A DNA stretch of 64,000 nt, taken from NCBI RefSeq assembly GCF_056712565.1, contig NZ_CM160072.1. One strand, written 5' to 3'. This document shows positions 5,886-13,731 of this stretch, piece after piece. The stretch's first letter is position 1, and every line of letters starts with the position of its first letter. The position numbers were made by a program, and so were the translations under genes. The notes beneath the pieces are model-generated. The model saw only the letters and a list, made by a program, of their open reading frames with translations. It ran no database searches and was not told the origin of the DNA.

Positions 5886-6036
5886 GTTTATTACTCCCTT
5901 TAATGTCTGTTTCCGAGCATTTAACAAGATAGTCCTTAACAACTTCTTAAGGGAAAAAAATAAAATTTAATGCTGTACAGAGCGCGTTACAACACGGTTT
6001 ACTGGCAGCAAATACGGTTATCGCAGGGATGAAAAA

Positions 6037-6696
6037 ATGCGAATTTTACTGATAGAAGATGACATGCTGATTGGCGACGGCATCAAAACGGGCCTTAGTA
6101 AAATGGGTTTTAGCGTCGACTGGTTTACACAAGGTCGTCAGGGAAAAGAGGCGCTATATAGCGCACCTTATGATGCGGTGATCCTGGATTTAACCTTACC
6201 GGGCATGGATGGTCGCGATATTTTGCGCGAATGGCGAGAAAAAGGTCAGCGTGAGCCGGTACTGATCCTGACCGCGCGCGATGCGCTGGCGGAACGTGTA
6301 GAAGGGCTGCGTCTGGGAGCTGACGATTATCTGTGTAAACCTTTTGCGTTGATAGAAGTCGCCGCCAGGCTGGAAGCTCTGATGCGCCGAACCAACGGCC
6401 AGGCCAGCAACGAGCTGCGCCACGGCAACGTCATGCTCGACCCCGGCAAACGTATCGCCACGCTGGCTGGCGAACCCTTAACGCTGAAACCAAAAGAATT
6501 TGCCCTGCTGGAATTACTGATGCGTAACGCTGGTCGGGTACTGCCGCGCAAACTGATTGAAGAGAAACTGTATACCTGGGACGAAGAGGTCACCAGTAAT
6601 GCCGTTGAAGTGCATGTGCATCATCTGCGACGCAAACTCGGCAGTGATTTTATTCGTACCGTGCATGGTATTGGCTACACATTAGGTGAGAAATGA
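6037..6696 (+). CDS. qseB: two-component response regulator QseB (OmpR family)
   Basis: 219-aa ORF with receiver domain (MRILLIEDD...) and winged-helix C-terminus; 4-bp overlap with following kinase gene. Confidence 0.92.
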
Positions 6697-8042
6697 AATT
6701 TACCCAACGTCTTAGTCTGCGAGTCAGGCTGACGCTAATCTTTTTAATTCTGGCCTCGGTGACCTGGCTGCTTTCCAGCTTTGTCGCCTGGAAACAAACA
6801 ACGGATAACGTCGATGAGTTGTTCGACACCCAACTGATGCTGTTTGCCAAACGGTTAAGTACGCTCGATCTCAACGAAATCAACGCGGCGGATCGCATGG
6901 CACAGACGCCAAATAAATTAAAACACGGTCATGTTGATGACGATGCGCTGACTTTTGCCATCTTTACCCACGACGGCAGAATGGTCCTTAACGATGGCGA
7001 TAACGGAGAAGATATTCCCTATAGCTATCAGCGGGAAGGTTTTGCTGACGGGCAACTGGTCGGTGAAGACGATCCCTGGCGTTTTGTCTGGATGACCTCA
7101 CCTGATGGCAAATATCGCATCGTTGTGGGTCAGGAATGGGAATACCGTGAAGACATGGCGCTGGCGATTGTTGCCGGACAATTGATCCCGTGGCTGGTCG
7201 CACTGCCGATTATGTTAATCATCATGATGGTACTACTGGGTCGTGAACTCGCGCCGCTGAACAAATTGGCGCTGGCACTACGTATGCGTGACCCAGACTC
7301 GGAAAAACCACTAAACGCGACGGGCGTACCCAGCGAAGTGCGCCCACTGGTTGAGTCGCTAAATCAACTGTTCGCCCGCACACATGCGATGATGGTTCGT
7401 GAACGACGCTTTACCTCCGACGCAGCTCACGAACTTCGTAGCCCGTTAACGGCGCTGAAAGTGCAAACCGAAGTTGCTCAGCTCTCTGACGATGATCCGC
7501 AGGCGCGGAAAAAAGCGCTGCTCCAATTACATTCCGGGATCGATCGCGCTACTCGTCTGGTTGATCAACTGCTCACGCTATCGCGGCTGGACTCACTGGA
7601 TAACCTTCAGGACGTCGCGGAGATCCCGCTTGAAGATCTCCTGCAATCGTCGGTGATGGATATTTACCACACGGCGCAGCAGGCGAACATTGACGTGCGA
7701 CTGACACTCAATGCCAACGGCATCAAACGCACCGGACAACCGCTATTGCTAAGTTTGTTGGTGCGAAATTTGCTGGATAACGCCGTGCGTTACAGTCCAC
7801 AAGGTAGCGTGGTAGACGTCACGCTGAATGCCGATAATTTCATCGTGAGGGATAACGGCCCCGGTGTGACGCCAGAGGCACTGGCGCGAATTGGCGAACG
7901 CTTCTATCGCCCACCCGGACAAACCGCTACCGGCAGTGGACTTGGGCTATCGATTGTCCAGCGAATCGCCAAGCTGCATGACATGAATGTTGAATTTGGG
8001 AATGCGGAACAAGGTGGATTTGAGGCGAAGGTAAGCTGGTAA
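6693..8042 (+). CDS. qseC: sensor histidine kinase QseC
   Basis: 449-aa ORF with two TM segments, H-box (AAHELRSPL) and ATPase motifs. Confidence 0.92.
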
Positions 8043-8087: not shown

Positions 8088-8420
8088 CTAATAGCAAAAT
8101 ATAAACCGTCCCCAAAAAAGCCACCAACCACAACCCAGACAAATAACGAGCGAGAATACATATAGCCAAAACTCGAACATTTCCCGCATAAAGAGTTTTC
8201 TTAAGATAAGAATAATAAGTGGTGTCAGAAGAAAAAATGCTGCAATCATTGCTTGCAATATACGATCTTCGCCTGAAACAGAAGGTATACTGCAAATATT
8301 GTCTCCCGACTCAAGCATCCAGTCATACTTATTGAAAGCAAAAAAAGAATCTATTAACCAATAAGTAAGCATTATATATAATAGTGCTTCAAATATTGAT
8401 AGTAGTTGTTTTTTTAACAT
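8088..8420 (-). CDS. ygiZ: small inner-membrane protein (about 3 TM helices); YgiZ-like; possible immunity protein of adjacent effector
   Basis: 110-aa ORF, hydrophobic segments, AT-rich; immediately downstream of the effector-like gene (6-bp gap). Confidence 0.6.
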   Translation of the reverse strand: MLKKQLLSIFEALLYIMLTYWLIDSFFAFNKYDWMLESGDNICSIPSVSGEDRILQAMIAAFFLLTPLIILILRKLFMREMFEFWLYVFSLVICLGCGWWLFWGRFIFCY

Positions 8421-8426
8421 ATCTGA

Positions 8427-9137
8427 TTACTCATTAATCAATTTTTTGATATGTTCTCTAATCTCTAACAACCTCATACCATAAGAGATGAATTTATAAT
8501 CATCTGTATCACGCGCAGGCAAATTATTAATTAAACAAATAAAAAAACCCAAATCTCGTTCAACACCACGATTATATCTAATACCAGCCATAATATACTG
8601 CTCATTCGTCATATACAGTGTTGCCGAAGAGGGATAATCAAAAAGAACAAGATCTCTTAAATAAGTAGCAGCAATTTGAAAGGTAAAATCATCCTCCATT
8701 AGGCATGTCGCTAACTCTAACTGATTTCTGGTAGTTAATTCTGAAGGGTCTAGACCTAGAGTAATCGCTGCGGTTCGTATTTGTATACCCATTGAGCCAA
8801 ATGATGTTTTATTTTCAGGCATATCTAACAATCCGATCATTCTTTTTGTTTCATATATCTGAAACTTATAATTTTCAGGCATACCTCCTGACTCAATCCA
8901 GGCCACGCCGCCCAGTAACTCTGGACGAATTCCAGCGGCGTATGCATGTTTAATTATTTTGTCTCTATTATATTGTACATATGCATCTTTATAAGCATTT
9001 AAATAATATACTCCTGAACGGCGACGCGAATCATTTTTTCCTAACTTCCAGAGTAAAACGTCCATTTCATCCCATTTACGGAACTTCGCTTGTGGAATTG
9101 TACAATATCTATTTTTTATAGTGAGATCGCTTTTCAT
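8427..9137 (-). CDS. hypothetical protein with lytic transglycosylase/lysozyme-like (SLT/GH23-type) motifs; candidate Hcp-associated T6SS effector
   Basis: ORF 8427-9164; start placed at ATG 9135-9137 (MKSDLTIKNRY...), 2 bp after hcp stop, with AAGGA RBS inside hcp 3' end. Motifs GGVAWIESGG, FGSMGIQ and AGIRYNRG in SLT-like order; no N-terminal signal peptide. Confidence 0.55.
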   Translation of the reverse strand: MKSDLTIKNRYCTIPQAKFRKWDEMDVLLWKLGKNDSRRRSGVYYLNAYKDAYVQYNRDKIIKHAYAAGIRPELLGGVAWIESGGMPENYKFQIYETKRMIGLLDMPENKTSFGSMGIQIRTAAITLGLDPSELTTRNQLELATCLMEDDFTFQIAATYLRDLVLFDYPSSATLYMTNEQYIMAGIRYNRGVERDLGFFICLINNLPARDTDDYKFISYGMRLLEIREHIKKLINE

Positions 9138-9139
9138 AT

Positions 9140-9619
9140 TTAAAAAATCCTTTCTTCCCAACAACTATATGATTCCGTACTCGCGATATGGTGCTTCCAT
9201 GTTATATTTTTATAATTAAGAACAATGACATCTTCCGGCTGATTACCCGCATGTGTAATTGAGTGTGGATAACATGTCAGAATATTCGATAAATGTGCTC
9301 CTTGCAATTCAATTGTGTAAAACCTTTCAATACAACCGCCAGAATTAATTCTATAAAAATTAAATACAGCTGATAACTCTTCATTTTCAGAAAGAGCGGC
9401 ATTTAATAAAGGGGAGGATTTATCTATTGGCTTGTAAAATTTTATGGGGTGATGCACTACATTATACTCTCGACTTAAAGAATGGTCGAACTGTAAAACA
9501 AAAATTTCATCCACATGATTTATTTGATATTTATTACCAATAGATGCATACGAACCACAACCCTCAGAGATCAAACCTTGTATTTTCCCTTTAATTGATA
9601 AGTATATCATATTTGACAT
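9140..9619 (-). CDS. hcp: Hcp family type VI secretion system tube protein (orphan hcp)
   Basis: 159-aa ORF MSNMIYLSIKGKIQG...; typical Hcp length and conserved blocks (N-terminal YL.IKG, central FYKPIDKSSPLL, C-terminal ITWKH) recognised from memory of Hcp1-family proteins. Confidence 0.75.
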   Translation of the reverse strand: MSNMIYLSIKGKIQGLISEGCGSYASIGNKYQINHVDEIFVLQFDHSLSREYNVVHHPIKFYKPIDKSSPLLNAALSENEELSAVFNFYRINSGGCIERFYTIELQGAHLSNILTCYPHSITHAGNQPEDVIVLNYKNITWKHHIASTESYSCWEERIF

Positions 9620-9868
9620 ATATATTCTCCATAATCATTTTTTCCGAAAAACTCCTGTATCATTTGCATAATACATCTCTCCTGTGGGAGCTTATGGGAA
9701 GTTGATTTAAGTATTGTCATTTTCAGAAAATATTTATCCCGCATCGGTGAATCAGAGAAAGATCAGACTTTTGCTAAATTCGCAAAAGACTTTGCACATT
9801 TTGCTAATTTCACCGTACCGCTCTGTGACGTACTATAGTCGGCAAACGTCTCACCTTGAGGTTAAAAA

Positions 9869-10450
9869 ATGAGCAACATCCTGATTATCAACGGCGCGAA
9901 AAAATTCGCCCACTCCAATGGTCAACTGAACGACACCCTGACCGAAGTCGCGGATGGCACACTGCGCGACCTCGGGCATGATGTCCGCATTGTTCGCGCC
10001 GACAGCGACTACGATGTCAAAGCGGAAGTACAAAACTTTCTCTGGGCTGATGTGGTGATCTGGCAGATGCCAGGCTGGTGGATGGGCGCGCCGTGGACAG
10101 TGAAAAAATATATTGATGATGTATTCACCGAAGGTCACGGGACTCTGTATGCCAGCGATGGTCGTACCCGCAAAGATCCATCAAAAAAATACGGTTCCGG
10201 CGGCCTGGTACAGGGCAAAAAATATATGCTTTCACTGACCTGGAACGCACCAATGGAAGCCTTCACCGAAAAAGATCAGTTCTTCCACGGCGTTGGTGTT
10301 GACGGTGTGTACCTGCCGTTCCATAAAGCAAACCAATTCCTTGGCATGGAACCGCTGCCGACATTTATCGCTAATGACGTGATAAAAATGCCTGATGTTC
10401 CCCGCTATACTGAAGAATATCGCAAGCATCTTGTGGAAATTTTTGGTTAA
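9869..10450 (+). CDS. mdaB: NADPH:quinone oxidoreductase MdaB
   Basis: 193-aa ORF MSNILIINGAKKFAHSNGQLNDTL..., recognised MdaB. Confidence 0.93.
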   Translation: MSNILIINGAKKFAHSNGQLNDTLTEVADGTLRDLGHDVRIVRADSDYDVKAEVQNFLWADVVIWQMPGWWMGAPWTVKKYIDDVFTEGHGTLYASDGRTRKDPSKKYGSGGLVQGKKYMLSLTWNAPMEAFTEKDQFFHGVGVDGVYLPFHKANQFLGMEPLPTFIANDVIKMPDVPRYTEEYRKHLVEIFG

Positions 10451-10480: not shown

Positions 10481-10795
10481 ATGATTACAGTAATCGCAGA
10501 AATCCGTACTCGTCCTGGTCAACATCACCGTCAGGCAGTGTTGGATCAGTTTGCTAAAATCGTTCCAACCGTACTGAAAGAAGAAGGTTGCCACGGCTAT
10601 GCGCCAATGGTGGATTGCGCTGCTGGCGTGAGTTTCCAGTCTATGGCACCGGATTCTATCGTAATGATTGAGCAGTGGGAAAGCATCGCGCATCTTGAAG
10701 CGCATCTGCAAACCCCGCACATGAAAGCATATAGCGAAGCCGTAAAAGGTGACGTGCTGGAGATGAATATTCGTATCCTGCAGCCGGGGCTTTGA
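10481..10795 (+). CDS. ygiN: quinol monooxygenase YgiN
   Basis: 104-aa ORF with RBS ggagttaacc before ATG; follows mdaB as in E. coli. Confidence 0.92.
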   Translation: MITVIAEIRTRPGQHHRQAVLDQFAKIVPTVLKEEGCHGYAPMVDCAAGVSFQSMAPDSIVMIEQWESIAHLEAHLQTPHMKAYSEAVKGDVLEMNIRILQPGL

Positions 10796-10839: not shown

Positions 10840-11727
10840 TTAGCCATTCTTTCTTCCCGTTTTCAGTCCTCGATGGAAATCGTTAATTCGCTTAATGGTT
10901 TTAACCGCACGCTGCGGCACTGCGGAAGCTACCGACCAGACAATCATTTCCAGACACAACAATACCGTACCATGTAGCGGCGTTTTCCCTTTTTCATCCC
11001 CGCGCGGAACATGAATCACGATACTGGCGTCTTTGCTAAAACGTGAATCCAGCGCGTTTGTCAGCAAAATAACAGGGATCCCCAGCCGCCTCGCCTCACG
11101 AAGCGTTGTCAGCCCTTCCCGGTGCGCAGATTTTTGCGCCATCATGATCAGAACATCGCCACGTTGAAGCGCGATCAGTTGCTCGGCAAGGCCAATACCC
11201 GTACGGTTTAGTGCCGTGGCAGGCAAACCTATGCGGTTGAATAGTCGTGCGGTATAGTCCGCCAGAATACCCGAAGCGCCAATGCCAAAAATTGCGACTT
11301 GCCGTGCCTGCACCAACAACGCTACAGCTTGCGCAAGCGCGTGGCGGTTTTCAGGCTCTGACAGGACATTACAGGTATACAAATGCCCTTCAAGAACAAA
11401 GTCGATTGCGGTGTTAACATCGCTCGTCAAGTTACTCACCGTCGTAGACATCTTTTCGCTGGAACTAAGGGCTGGACCAAGCCACTGTTCCAGAGTGCGT
11501 TTCAGATCACGCAGCCCGGCAAACCCCAGGGCCTGTATAGCCCTGATAACTGTGGCATCGGAAGTGTTCAACGTGGCCGCAATTTCCATCGCCGTTTGCT
11601 CGAGTACCACTTCACGATGCTCATTAATGTAGCTGGCGACAGCTCTTAACCCAGGCGTTAACTGACTCGCGCGAGTGCGAAAACGCTCACCAAAAATATC
11701 AACCCGCGCTTTATCTTTCTGGATCAT
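10840..11727 (-). CDS. RpiR/MurR-family transcriptional regulator (N-terminal HTH, C-terminal SIS domain); last gene of Fit-like uptake operon
   Basis: 295-aa ORF; HTH region then SIS-like segment VAIFGIGASG...; start overlaps stop of upstream binding-protein gene. Confidence 0.8.
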   Translation of the reverse strand: MIQKDKARVDIFGERFRTRASQLTPGLRAVASYINEHREVVLEQTAMEIAATLNTSDATVIRAIQALGFAGLRDLKRTLEQWLGPALSSSEKMSTTVSNLTSDVNTAIDFVLEGHLYTCNVLSEPENRHALAQAVALLVQARQVAIFGIGASGILADYTARLFNRIGLPATALNRTGIGLAEQLIALQRGDVLIMMAQKSAHREGLTTLREARRLGIPVILLTNALDSRFSKDASIVIHVPRGDEKGKTPLHGTVLLCLEMIVWSVASAVPQRAVKTIKRINDFHRGLKTGRKNG

Positions 11728-12671
11728 TTAGCCTCCGGTAGAGGTCGCCCTGCAATTTGTGATTGTATCTGCGCAGCCATCAGCCCCAGAGATGCAAAGG
11801 AGTTAGAAATTGCCTCTTCACGAGAAATCAGCACATAACGCCCGGAACGACAGGCAGTCAGAAACTGACACCATCCCGGCATGACTTTTTCCATTGCTGC
11901 CAGCTCATCCTGAGGTTTACCACCGGTGTCACCGCGCCAGGTTGCAAAAACAAAATCGGCATCCAGTTCAGGTAAACGCTCCGCGCTCACATCCATTCGC
12001 CCACCTTCAGGAATGCTCTCAATCAGCGGCGGAAAACGAAAACCAGCATCGCGTAATACCCGCCCCAGCGAATGATAGCTATGCATCACATTAATTTTTC
12101 CCTGGTTTGCCTGAATCACCGATACCGTTATTTTTTGGCTGTCCAGCGTCGCCTTCAGCGCATTGATTTGTGCCTGATAGCGGCGTTCAAGTATCGCCAG
12201 CTGCGACTGCGTTCCTGTAAGTTCTGCCAGCTTGCGATAGATTTCTGGCGCACCCCCTTTGAGATGATCAATGCTCACCGTGGGCGCAATTTTTTCAAGT
12301 TGTTCAATGGGCGTATTACGGGTCGGTTCTGTGATGATCAGGTCAGGCTTTGCCGCCACAATCGCTTCAATATCAATATCAGCGGTACCAATAAAGGCGA
12401 TCGATGAATTATCAAAGTCGACACCTGTCAATAACGCGCCAGATCGAATGAAATGGCTACCGTCAGGCCGAGTTCGCCCGTGGCTGGCGACAGGAGGTAC
12501 ACCGAGCTCAATCAGAGGAATAGTGATATCAAGATCGTGTAAAGAGACAATTCTCTTTGGATGAGCAGGAACAGTGACTTTGCGCCCTAAATCATCAGTA
12601 AATACCTGAACAGGTTCTGTTGCACGGGAAAAAAATGACAACAGTATCAGCAGAGAAAAAAATAAACGCAT
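11724..12671 (-). CDS. periplasmic substrate-binding protein of iron-siderophore/B12-type ABC transporter (Fit-like)
   Basis: ORF 11724-12734; start placed at MRLFFSLLILLSFFSRA (signal peptide); cluster-9 type SBP. Confidence 0.8.
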   Translation of the reverse strand: MRLFFSLLILLSFFSRATEPVQVFTDDLGRKVTVPAHPKRIVSLHDLDITIPLIELGVPPVASHGRTRPDGSHFIRSGALLTGVDFDNSSIAFIGTADIDIEAIVAAKPDLIITEPTRNTPIEQLEKIAPTVSIDHLKGGAPEIYRKLAELTGTQSQLAILERRYQAQINALKATLDSQKITVSVIQANQGKINVMHSYHSLGRVLRDAGFRFPPLIESIPEGGRMDVSAERLPELDADFVFATWRGDTGGKPQDELAAMEKVMPGWCQFLTACRSGRYVLISREEAISNSFASLGLMAAQIQSQIAGRPLPEAK

Positions 12672-12681
12672 ATAACTCCCG

Positions 12682-13731
12682 TTAAAAACTGTTCCTGCGC
12701 TGCCAGAGCAGTAGCAAAAAAAATGGTCCACCAATCAGTGAGATAATGATTCCGGCAGGCAGTTGCAAAGGCAAAAAAGCCAAACGACCAATGCTATCCG
12801 CCAGAATAACTAACAACGCCCCCGATACCGCGCTCCCCAGCAGTAATGTCGTCTGCCCGCCACGTAGAATAAAACGTGATATATGGGGTGCTATCAATCC
12901 GACAAAACCGATGTTACCAACACACGAAACGCAGACGGCTGTCAGGATTATGGGTGCGGCGACACGTAACAACGCCAGACGAGAACTATTCACCCCTAAC
13001 CCGGTTGCAACCTGATGACCAAGCAGAGCGATATCCGCAGTCCTGGCGGTGAACAGCAATAAAAGAGCGGCTGGCAACATCCAACAGGCTGAAATACCGA
13101 CTAACATCCAGTTAGCTGCATGCAGGCTTCCCGATAACCACATCAATGCAGTTTGTACATCTCGAACATCTGCAGTGGTCATAAATACACCGATACCGGC
13201 GGCGAAAAACCAGGAAACACCAATACCAATCAGAACAAATCGCGGGCGGGAAATATCGCGCGCACAAAAAATCACGATTAAAGCCACCAACAGACCACCA
13301 GCAAGACCAGCCACTGGACGCCAGAACATTCCCAGCATTGGAAACTGGAAAATCAGCCACAGCACCGCCACGCTACATCCTTCTTTGACGCCGATTAAAC
13401 CAGGATCGGCAAGGCCGTTACGCGCAATGGATTGCATCGCGGCCCCCGCCATACCTAACATGGCCCCGCATAGCAATGCCATGATGACTCTCGGCAAGCG
13501 AATATCCTGCACAATATAACGTGCGTCTGTGCTTACGTTTTCTGGAGCAAACAACGCTCGTCCTACTTCCGATGCCGGAACAGAGAAAGAACCCTGCATC
13601 AGACCGAATATCAGTATTCCAACCGCAAGCAGGAACAGCCCACCAAGCAACAGCAGATTTTTAGGGCGCACCAGTGTCGAAAACTTACCAACACGTAGTG
13701 GGCGTAGCCCGACGTTCATTATCCGACTCAT
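12682..13731 (-). CDS. FecCD-family ABC transporter permease (Fit-like)
   Basis: 349-aa polytopic membrane ORF; 4-bp overlap with upstream permease gene. Confidence 0.82.
   Translation of the reverse strand: MSRIMNVGLRPLRVGKFSTLVRPKNLLLLGGLFLLAVGILIFGLMQGSFSVPASEVGRALFAPENVSTDARYIVQDIRLPRVIMALLCGAMLGMAGAAMQSIARNGLADPGLIGVKEGCSVAVLWLIFQFPMLGMFWRPVAGLAGGLLVALIVIFCARDISRPRFVLIGIGVSWFFAAGIGVFMTTADVRDVQTALMWLSGSLHAANWMLVGISACWMLPAALLLLFTARTADIALLGHQVATGLGVNSSRLALLRVAAPIILTAVCVSCVGNIGFVGLIAPHISRFILRGGQTTLLLGSAVSGALLVILADSIGRLAFLPLQLPAGIIISLIGGPFFLLLLWQRRNSF

Follow-up and report, generated by a model that had tools for sequence, protein, structure and literature searches.

The present study concerns the 249-bp intergenic region at positions 9620–9868 of a 64,000-nucleotide stretch of DNA (the window; NCBI RefSeq assembly GCF_056712565.1, contig NZ_CM160072.1), which separates hcp on the minus strand from mdaB on the plus strand. 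The window is Escherichia coli phylogroup-B2-like DNA, and the 451 bp of it that were queried are 100% identical to ATCC 11775. mdaB and ygiN encode a pair of enzymes of the quinone redox cycle and have been linked to tolerance of drugs and oxidants; in the E. coli literature that could be searched, control of mdaB is ascribed to MarA/SoxS/Rob, and an effect of QseB/PreA has been reported in Salmonella. The comparative evidence points to a second, older input to mdaB and to a concrete candidate for it, YafC. Specifically, we favor, at a probability of about 60%, a reading in which the region is the mdaB–ygiN core promoter, its repeats make up the pair of boxes in a LysR-type activator site whose regulator is most likely YafC, and a marbox (a site for MarA/SoxS/Rob) overlaps the second box. 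The features concerned, in which LTTR stands for LysR-type transcriptional regulator, are as follows.

9765–9868, plus strand: core ancestral mdaB–ygiN promoter segment, 104 bp, delimited by alignments with K-12, CFSAN061762 and O157:H7; DNA to its left varies between lineages
9768–9788: palindromic operator CTTTTGC-TAAATTC-GCAAAAG, LTTR box 1 (putative recognition site), dyad centre 9778, about −65
9772–9784: T-N11-A core of box 1, TGC-TAAATTC-GCA, inside CTTTTGC-N7-GCAAAAG
9791–9810, plus strand: predicted forward marbox in class II position, centre 9800.5, about −43, with its 15-mer core GCACATTTTGCTAAT at 9794–9808
9800–9812, plus strand: LTTR box 2 (putative activation site) TTTGCTAATTTCA, T-N11-A, 15 bp after box 1, centre 9806, about −37
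9809–9814, plus strand: weak −35-like hexamer TTCACC, read from the sequence, with a 16-bp spacer to the −10
9831–9836, plus strand: −10 hexamer TACTAT, with an overlapping alternative TATAGT at 9834–9839
9843–9844, plus strand: predicted transcription start, the CA of a conserved CAAAC, placed from the position of the −10
9856–9859, plus strand: Shine-Dalgarno GAGG of mdaB, read from the sequence and conserved across species
9869–10450, plus strand: mdaB (NADPH:quinone oxidoreductase), the regulated gene; open reading frame and RefSeq annotation
10481–10795, plus strand: ygiN (quinol monooxygenase, ABM family); open reading frame and annotation

An earlier note on this DNA had drawn attention to an inverted and a direct repeat in front of mdaB, and both are present. 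The inverted repeat consists of cttttgc (9768–9774), taaattc (9775–9781) and gcaaaag (9782–9788) and can be extended to 13-nt arms at 85%, while the direct repeat joins TTTTGCTAAATTC at 9769–9781 to TTTTGCTAATTTC at 9799–9811, the copies being identical at 12 of 13 positions and 30 bp apart. The second copy coincides with box 2. When the 249-bp region was shuffled 1000 times with dinucleotides preserved, a perfect 7-bp inverted repeat with a loop of 3–12 nt arose in 15.6% of the shuffles and is by this frequency, taken alone, unremarkable; a 13-nt direct repeat with at most one mismatch within 60 bp arose in 0.4%. Conservation flips this ranking. Scanning genomes with MdaB yielded 80 loci, each from a different one of 80 Enterobacteriaceae species, and in the 81 sequences that these form together with the window the module ATTATTGC-N7-GCAAAAGACTTTGCACATTTTGCTnATTT is nearly invariant, with 69–81 of 81 sequences agreeing per column in the left block and 64–81 doing so in the right block at those positions that the module specifies. 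The TTGC/GCAA half-sites and their 7-nt spacing are retained in all 81. Only 5 of the 81 have the direct repeat in its long form, with at least 11 of 13 positions alike; elsewhere the copies share a median of 7 of 13 positions. The spacer between the half-sites takes 64 different sequences in the 81 and is always 7 nt long, and conserved half-sites about a free spacer of fixed length are what a DNA-binding protein that acts as a dimer typically requires. In Escherichia and some Salmonella the left arm carries two substitutions by which the palindrome becomes perfect. In most Enterobacteriaceae the qseC stop codon lies 5–10 nt upstream of the module, and in 77 of 81 sequences a TAnnnT hexamer, in E. 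coli TACTAT (9831–9836), starts 37 nt after the G of GCAC. Among complete E. coli genomes, 5424 of 5426 carry 9765–9868 at 95% identity or more. We regard the repeats, some 60–100 bp upstream of mdaB, as very probably regulator-binding sites, the role that the earlier note had predicted for them.

The arrangement of these sites suggests which type of regulator binds them. LysR-type regulators act from a recognition site with a T-N11-A motif near −65 and an activation site near −35, as at the promoters of CbnR, BenM and OxyR. The same two-site scheme is set out in PMC2724274. In the mdaB promoter the dyad centre at 9778 falls 53 nt before the −10 (9831), about −65 from the predicted start, and judged by its sequence the T-N11-A dyad has the features of a classical LTTR recognition site. 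Box 2 occupies positions that are conserved in the enterobacterial alignment. A promoter scan called no consensus promoter at the −35/−10 of mdaB, as is expected where a promoter depends on an activator, and the predicted leader is 25 nt long. The likeness to generic LTTR promoters thus extends to the T-N11-A dyad near −65, the weaker box near −37, the poor −35 and, at yafC, an autoregulatory placement of the operator; the E. coli regulator differs in not being divergently encoded from mdaB, an adjacency that is frequent in the family but not obligatory. The inverted and the direct repeat are explained together because they would be boxes 1 and 2 of one such site.

The palindrome also extends well beyond the enterobacterial core. 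The mdaB operator reads ATTATTGC-CGTGATC-GCAAAAG in Shimwellia, CTATTGC-GCCAGAA-GCAAAAG in a lineage with parC divergent from mdaB (loci L091/L095), TGTTGA-TATTCAG-TCAACA in Pectobacterium, TGTTGA-N7-TCAATA in Acinetobacter and TTATTGA-N7-TCAATAG in a further lineage. In the distant loci (Shimwellia, L091/L095, Pectobacterium, Acinetobacter and L094) the palindrome is kept, the marbox is lost and the upstream neighbor differs; the pairing of mdaB with an ABM gene is likewise seen in Acinetobacter and other lineages. In each of the 12 promoters compared, a count of exactly 50 nt from the first base of the right half-site leads to the start of a −10-like hexamer, for which the background is 3.4% per position, and between lineages the inner base pair of both half-sites shifts in concert from C..G to A..T, as expected for a symmetric dimer site. 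Of palindrome and marbox, the palindrome is on this comparison the older element, and it depends neither on the marbox nor on qseC; the operator would pre-date the hcp insertion by the depth of the Proteobacteria.

The closest known system is that of Neisseria meningitidis, in which the divergently encoded LysR protein CrgA activates mdaB, activation is induced by alpha-methylene-gamma-butyrolactone, and CrgA footprints are described as covering two T-N11-A sites 15 bp apart in the crgA–mdaB region (PMC2724274). Scanning metagenomes with the CrgA sequence yielded Neisseria loci in which crgA and mdaB are divergently oriented. Read towards mdaB, the meningococcal-type region carries ATTATTTC-ATTTGAC-GCAAAAGTG, 15 bp, and TTTTGCACTTTTA, with CACAAT at offset 50; its right half-site is GCAAAAG, and box 2, TTTTGCACTTTTA, lies at positions 19–31. 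Commensal Neisseria have ATTATTCT-GTTTAAC-GCAAAAGAG followed by TTTTGCACTTTTT, with CATAAT at offset 50. The offset of 50 is kept in 9 of 11 Neisseria loci, the other two having small indels. The Neisseria promoter, ATTATTTC-N7-GCAAAAG, 15 bp, TTTTGCACTTTTA, thus shares with that of E. coli, ACTTTTGC-N7-GCAAAAG, 15 bp, TTTGCTAATTTCA, the regulated gene, the right half-site, the 15-bp gap between boxes and the −10 at 50 nt, and the two systems also share an orthologous regulator and an operator that touches the regulator's own start codon. They differ in that E. coli has an unlinked regulator gene, a better left half-site (TTGC), a marbox over box 2 and no REP2-type insertion. In addition, CrgA is octameric, and neither that oligomeric state nor sliding-dimer behavior is ascribed to YafC here. 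Two further observations concern the Neisseriaceae. The meningococcal-type crgA–mdaB intergenic region (L103, 1260–1500) is some 130 bp longer than the commensal one (L108, 1388–1500), the extra segment being partly palindromic, situated between the crgA start and the operator, and possibly the REP2-type repeat of the literature; and one Neisseriaceae MdaB (P0048) is enteric-like and has no crgA nearby.

YafC is described as a close E. coli homolog of CrgA, with 59% identity (PMC2724274). It matches CrgA (PDB 3HHG) over its full length with E=4e-113 and a nearly identical recognition helix, scores 520.8 bits against the NCBIfam YafC equivalog model (cut-off 470), and is, on this sequence evidence, the E. 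coli ortholog of CrgA. The yafC–dkgB pair is core, being found in 5325 of 5426 E. coli genomes, and YafC is 84–90% identical across genera. In MG1655 yafC occupies 229,967–230,881, next to its convergent neighbor dkgB and about 2.9 Mb from mdaB. Upstream of K-12 dkgB stands ATTATTGC-CAGAATC-GCAAAAA with a −10 of CATAAT at offset 50, and at K-12 yafC TTTTGC-N7-GCAAAA abuts the ATG. Both operators are conserved in Dickeya, where the yafC–dkgB pair lies in a different neighborhood and the dkgB −10 again stands at offset 50, and the operator at the yafC start is conserved in Enterobacter 638. Apart from mdaB promoters, the extended operator pattern occurs in only 3 places in 427 kb of enterobacterial DNA, so that two matches within about 0.4 kb flanking yafC are far beyond chance. 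In Pectobacterium (L097, 3001–4519) a YafC-like LysR gene lies directly downstream of mdaB in place of ygiN; its product is 42% identical to E. coli YafC and has CrgA as best PDB match (E=6e-81) and YafC as best NCBIfam model. Regulator and target are thus divergent neighbors in Neisseria and adjacent but convergent in Pectobacterium. The helix ANSAVSR of YafC and CrgA goes with a right half of ...GCAA and the Pectobacterium helix TTSGISR with TTGA-N7-TCAA; the Pectobacterium regulator and operator have apparently changed together. The predicted motif, T(A/T)TTGC-N7-GCAAAA, is testable and has three predicted targets, mdaB–ygiN, dkgB and yafC.

If YafC is the regulator, box 1 (TTGC-N7-GCAA, 9772–9784, about −65) would be its high-affinity recognition site and box 2 (9800–9812), 15 bp on and beside the weak −35, its activation site, and YafC bound to both would help RNA polymerase to use the mdaB–ygiN promoter in spite of the poor −35. 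The signal would presumably be derived from a quinone or electrophile, by analogy with CrgA and because this would fit the reductase functions of MdaB and DkgB. The class II marbox over box 2 would give MarA/SoxS/Rob (RamA in other genera) a second entry, and, since the two sites overlap, YafC and MarA-type inputs would probably compete or alternate there; the hcp block would play no part in the promoter. A wider proposal, which we put forward tentatively and hold to be slightly less probable than its negation, is that YafC is the dedicated activator of a small regulon for quinone and electrophile detoxification (mdaB–ygiN, dkgB and itself), that the mdaB promoter is an ancient operator–promoter cassette with a base-pair geometry preserved alike in Neisseria, Acinetobacter and E. 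coli despite the unlinking of the regulator, and that the marbox was laid later over the activation site, with two stress systems converging, and perhaps competing, on the same 20 bp. YafC is among the remaining uncharacterized E. coli transcription factors, for which a study by chromatin immunoprecipitation with exonuclease digestion (ChIP-exo) gives, in its main text, sites and neither motif nor function; it would gain a directly testable motif, a regulon and a precise promoter model.

Several points weigh against this reading. The link between YafC and mdaB in E. coli is predicted, by sequence and by analogy, binding and activation of mdaB having been demonstrated for CrgA in Neisseria only. 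In E. coli yafC is not adjacent to mdaB, whose neighbors are hcp, ygiZ or qseC. In its main text the ChIP-exo study mentions neither mdaB nor dkgB and gives no YafC motif, and we found no paper linking YafC to mdaB in E. coli, though a database may already list such a site. In the one Salmonella locus examined, no such operator was seen at the start of yafC. In Neisseria the left half-site is degenerate, with TTTC or TTCT and not TTGC, and the CrgA boxes were assigned by matching the verbal description of the footprint, not the published figure. The list of transcription starts used in PMC12052159 places K-12 starts at about 9769 and 9817 in window terms, and from the latter the palindrome would lie at about −39. 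That list is part of a set of 28,107 start sites, in which the table pairs each predicted marbox with the nearest, and the conversion of its U00096.2 coordinates is uncertain by 3–4 nt; the distances in the table disagree among themselves by 10 nt in many rows. An attempt to map the mdaB start in the Salmonella PreA study failed (PMC2653508). At 9758–9763 K-12 has TAAGAT, a plausible −10 for the listed start at about 9769, and the window strain has AAAGAT, so that this minor promoter may be specific to the K-12 lineage. Finally, matches to the marbox consensus in the 64-kb window are at chance level (27 observed, 24 expected), and the sequence match alone was dropped as evidence for a marbox.

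A different quinone-sensing dimeric regulator, such as another LysR protein or one of MarR, TetR or HxlR type, might own the palindrome, the sites at yafC and dkgB then reflecting co-regulation by that factor. The conserved half-sites and free spacer show only that a dimer binds, YafC binding is predicted only, and yafC is unlinked from mdaB in E. coli. We nevertheless consider such a regulator unlikely, since a gene of the CrgA/YafC family adjoins mdaB in two lineages as distant as Neisseria and Pectobacterium, the motif stands at the yafC start codon in three genera as autoregulation would predict, and CrgA has been bound experimentally to the homologous Neisseria region (PMC2724274). Individual candidates fit poorly. 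The box of the LysR protein YhaJ (yqjF, yhaK, ybiJ) resembles the mdaB operator in being a T-N11-A palindrome before redox- or quinone-related genes, but its half-sites are TCA-N7-TGA and not TGC-N7-GCA, and mdaB is not among the listed YhaJ targets; YhaJ was rejected as binder on its box. QseB/PreA was rejected because there is no PmrA/QseB-type box upstream of mdaB: no direct repeat of the form YTTAAK-N5-YTTAAK was read in 9620–9868, unlike in the ygiW–qseB region, where CTTAAC-AACTT-CTTAAG at 5935–5951 is a good repeat of this type. Over-expression of PreA raises Salmonella mdaB 32-fold (PMC2653508), an effect that, given the missing box, is probably indirect or due to read-through. YgiV/STM3175 was also dropped as a local Rob-like factor; the E. 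coli protein has 160 aa and, judged by this length, presumably consists of a GyrI-like domain alone, lacking a helix-turn-helix.

The earlier note had also named MarA/SoxS/Rob as candidate regulators, and here the two repeat copies part company. Both GCACATTTTGCTAAT and GCTAAATTCGCAAAA, the latter inside the palindrome at 9773–9787, are computational marbox predictions for mdaB (S2 Table, Trigg et al. 2025, PMC12052159). The proximal site, which overlaps the second repeat copy, has one mismatch to gcannwwntgnnaaa and two to the 20-mer consensus; it is oriented along the plus strand, lies within the class II range of −36 to −55, overlaps the −35 and is invariant in 75–81 of 81 species per position. 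Support for it comes from this position, from conservation and from published expression data, and not from the match itself. mdaB is described in the literature as a member of the mar/sox/rob/RamA regulon and is 3.2-fold lower in a Salmonella ramA mutant; the PtrR/YneJ paper does no more than cite it as a MarA target. A search for data on binding at mdaB found none, and mdaB is absent from the main text and from one supplement file of each of the MarA ChIP-seq (chromatin immunoprecipitation sequencing) papers. The proximal marbox fits the known control of mdaB by MarA/SoxS/Rob/RamA, with direct binding predicted only. It resembles the class II promoters lpxC P2, lpxL P1 and rfaY P1 (PMC12052159) in having a forward marbox, here GCACATTTTGCTAAT, at about −43 overlapping the −35, and lpxC furthermore in that the marbox overlaps the core of an upstream minor start; it differs from them in that binding is predicted and that the marbox lies on top of an LTTR activation site of greater age, and at mdaB it is absent outside the core Enterobacteriaceae. 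In strain EC05 (locus L004, about 1749–2932) an IS5-like element, ISKpn26, interrupts box 2 and the marbox at the position corresponding to 9804; mdaB of this strain is also frameshifted, and the insertion amounts to a natural promoter knockout.

That both repeat copies are marboxes, the palindrome serving as a distal site beside the proximal one and MarA/SoxS/Rob acting alone, would accord with the two published predictions and with regulon membership, and is in our view distinctly improbable. The distal match has two mismatches, and chance alone yields a match of this quality roughly every 500 bp (17,730 sites per genome). Since the 7-nt spacer, which varies freely, contains its RE1 and A/T positions, the palindrome does not count as a conserved marbox; for the same reason the distal marbox is, on its sequence, not credible. 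Moreover, lineages that have lost the proximal marbox still carry the palindrome, as do Acinetobacter and Neisseria, and a monomeric, asymmetric binder explains neither the dyad symmetry nor the concerted change from C..G to A..T.

It is very unlikely that the palindrome is instead a hairpin acting as terminator or insulator of the upstream qseBC operon or of neighboring operons. The qseC stop codon does lie 5–10 nt upstream in most genera, preB and mdaB are not co-transcribed in Salmonella, where reverse transcription PCR shows co-transcription of mdaB and ygiN (PMC2653508), and a pattern scan flags a terminator-like hairpin, but on the minus strand. As RNA, the stem has little stability (−6.8 kcal/mol in E. 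coli, median −3.5 across species, with only 2–3 G-C pairs), no U-tract follows it on the plus strand, where the tail is ACTTTGCAC, and the stem is conserved in sequence without compensatory changes. Loci with a divergent upstream gene (parC, crgA) or an unrelated one also keep the element, and its fixed distance is to the mdaB −10 and not to the upstream stop codon.

The earlier note had suggested a site shared by, or insulating, hcp and mdaB; this part of its interpretation was wrong, and the interpretation as a whole, which did not consider the LysR-type CrgA/YafC family and was incomplete on the main factor, is partly supported. The genes upstream of the promoter segment are as follows.

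6037–6696, plus strand: qseB, open reading frame and annotation
6693–8042, plus strand: qseC, open reading frame and annotation
8088–8420, minus strand: ygiZ, DUF2645 membrane protein, open reading frame and annotation
8427–9164, minus strand: open reading frame of 245 aa
9140–9619, minus strand: hcp (Pfam T6SS_HCP, E=1.6e-19; TIGR03344, 2e-58)
8088–9764, minus strand: accessory block of ygiZ, the 245-aa frame and hcp with the hcp upstream region, abutting the mdaB promoter and not part of it

The reading frames and the Hcp profile matches agree with the flanking genes that the earlier note had given. In an alignment of the window with K-12, the check that the earlier note had proposed, and also with a second K-12-like strain (CFSAN061762) and with O157:H7, similarity to the ygiZ–mdaB region of K-12 starts only at about 9692–9710 and continues rightwards; O157:H7, which lacks ygiZ as do most other genera, is shared only from 9765, where its qseC stop is joined straight to the left edge of the palindrome. 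E. albertii, too, is without even ygiZ. Because the 9765–9868 segment is near-universal and hcp adjoins mdaB in only 1260 of 5425 E. coli genomes, the repeats belong to the core mdaB promoter and not to the hcp insert. The idea that the divergent hcp operon and mdaB have a control site in common, to which the location in the hcp–mdaB intergenic region, 150–170 bp from the hcp start, might point, can accordingly be given next to no credence: the site occurs in 5424 genomes, compared with K-12 the hcp-specific DNA ends at about 9692–9710, and compared with the ancestral order it ends at 9764, and the repeats are kept with or without the block, whether the upstream neighbor is qseC, parC, an ADH gene or crgA. 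The operator would, besides, pre-date the insertion by the depth of the Proteobacteria, and the promoter scan found no convincing sigma-70 promoter for hcp in 9620–9764 (best 8/12). The last alternative, functionless chance repeats in AT-rich intergenic DNA, draws on the 15.6% of shuffles with a 7-bp inverted repeat and is effectively refuted already by conservation, that is, by near-invariance over 80 species, a geometry that different families and classes have in common, and the further occurrences at dkgB and yafC.

On the alignments, the block of hcp, the 245-aa frame and ygiZ is a later acquisition that ends at 9764, inserted exactly at the upstream edge of the module without disturbing it, and its insertion there settles which part of the intergenic region is backbone. 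The three genes are packed head to tail, the stop codon of the 245-aa frame lying 6 nt from the ygiZ start, and the 245-aa product has no Pfam, NCBIfam or PDB match. The set looks like an orphan module of Hcp, effector and immunity protein, in which case ygiZ would be an orphan immunity gene in K-12, which has ygiZ without hcp.

Two observations concern the DNA downstream of mdaB. E. albertii (L008, about 4470) and Salmonella diarizonae (L018, about 4548) have another operator-like sequence, TATTGCGGTATTCGCAAAA, some 2 kb downstream from the start of mdaB, probably in or near parE, where it may be a coincidence of coding sequence. In the window, 10840–13731 and beyond, between ygiN and the position of parE in K-12, holds a MurR/RpiR-family regulator and an iron-siderophore ATP-binding cassette transporter (substrate-binding protein, FecCD permease) in an arrangement common to O157:H7, and forms a second variable segment on the other flank of mdaB–ygiN.

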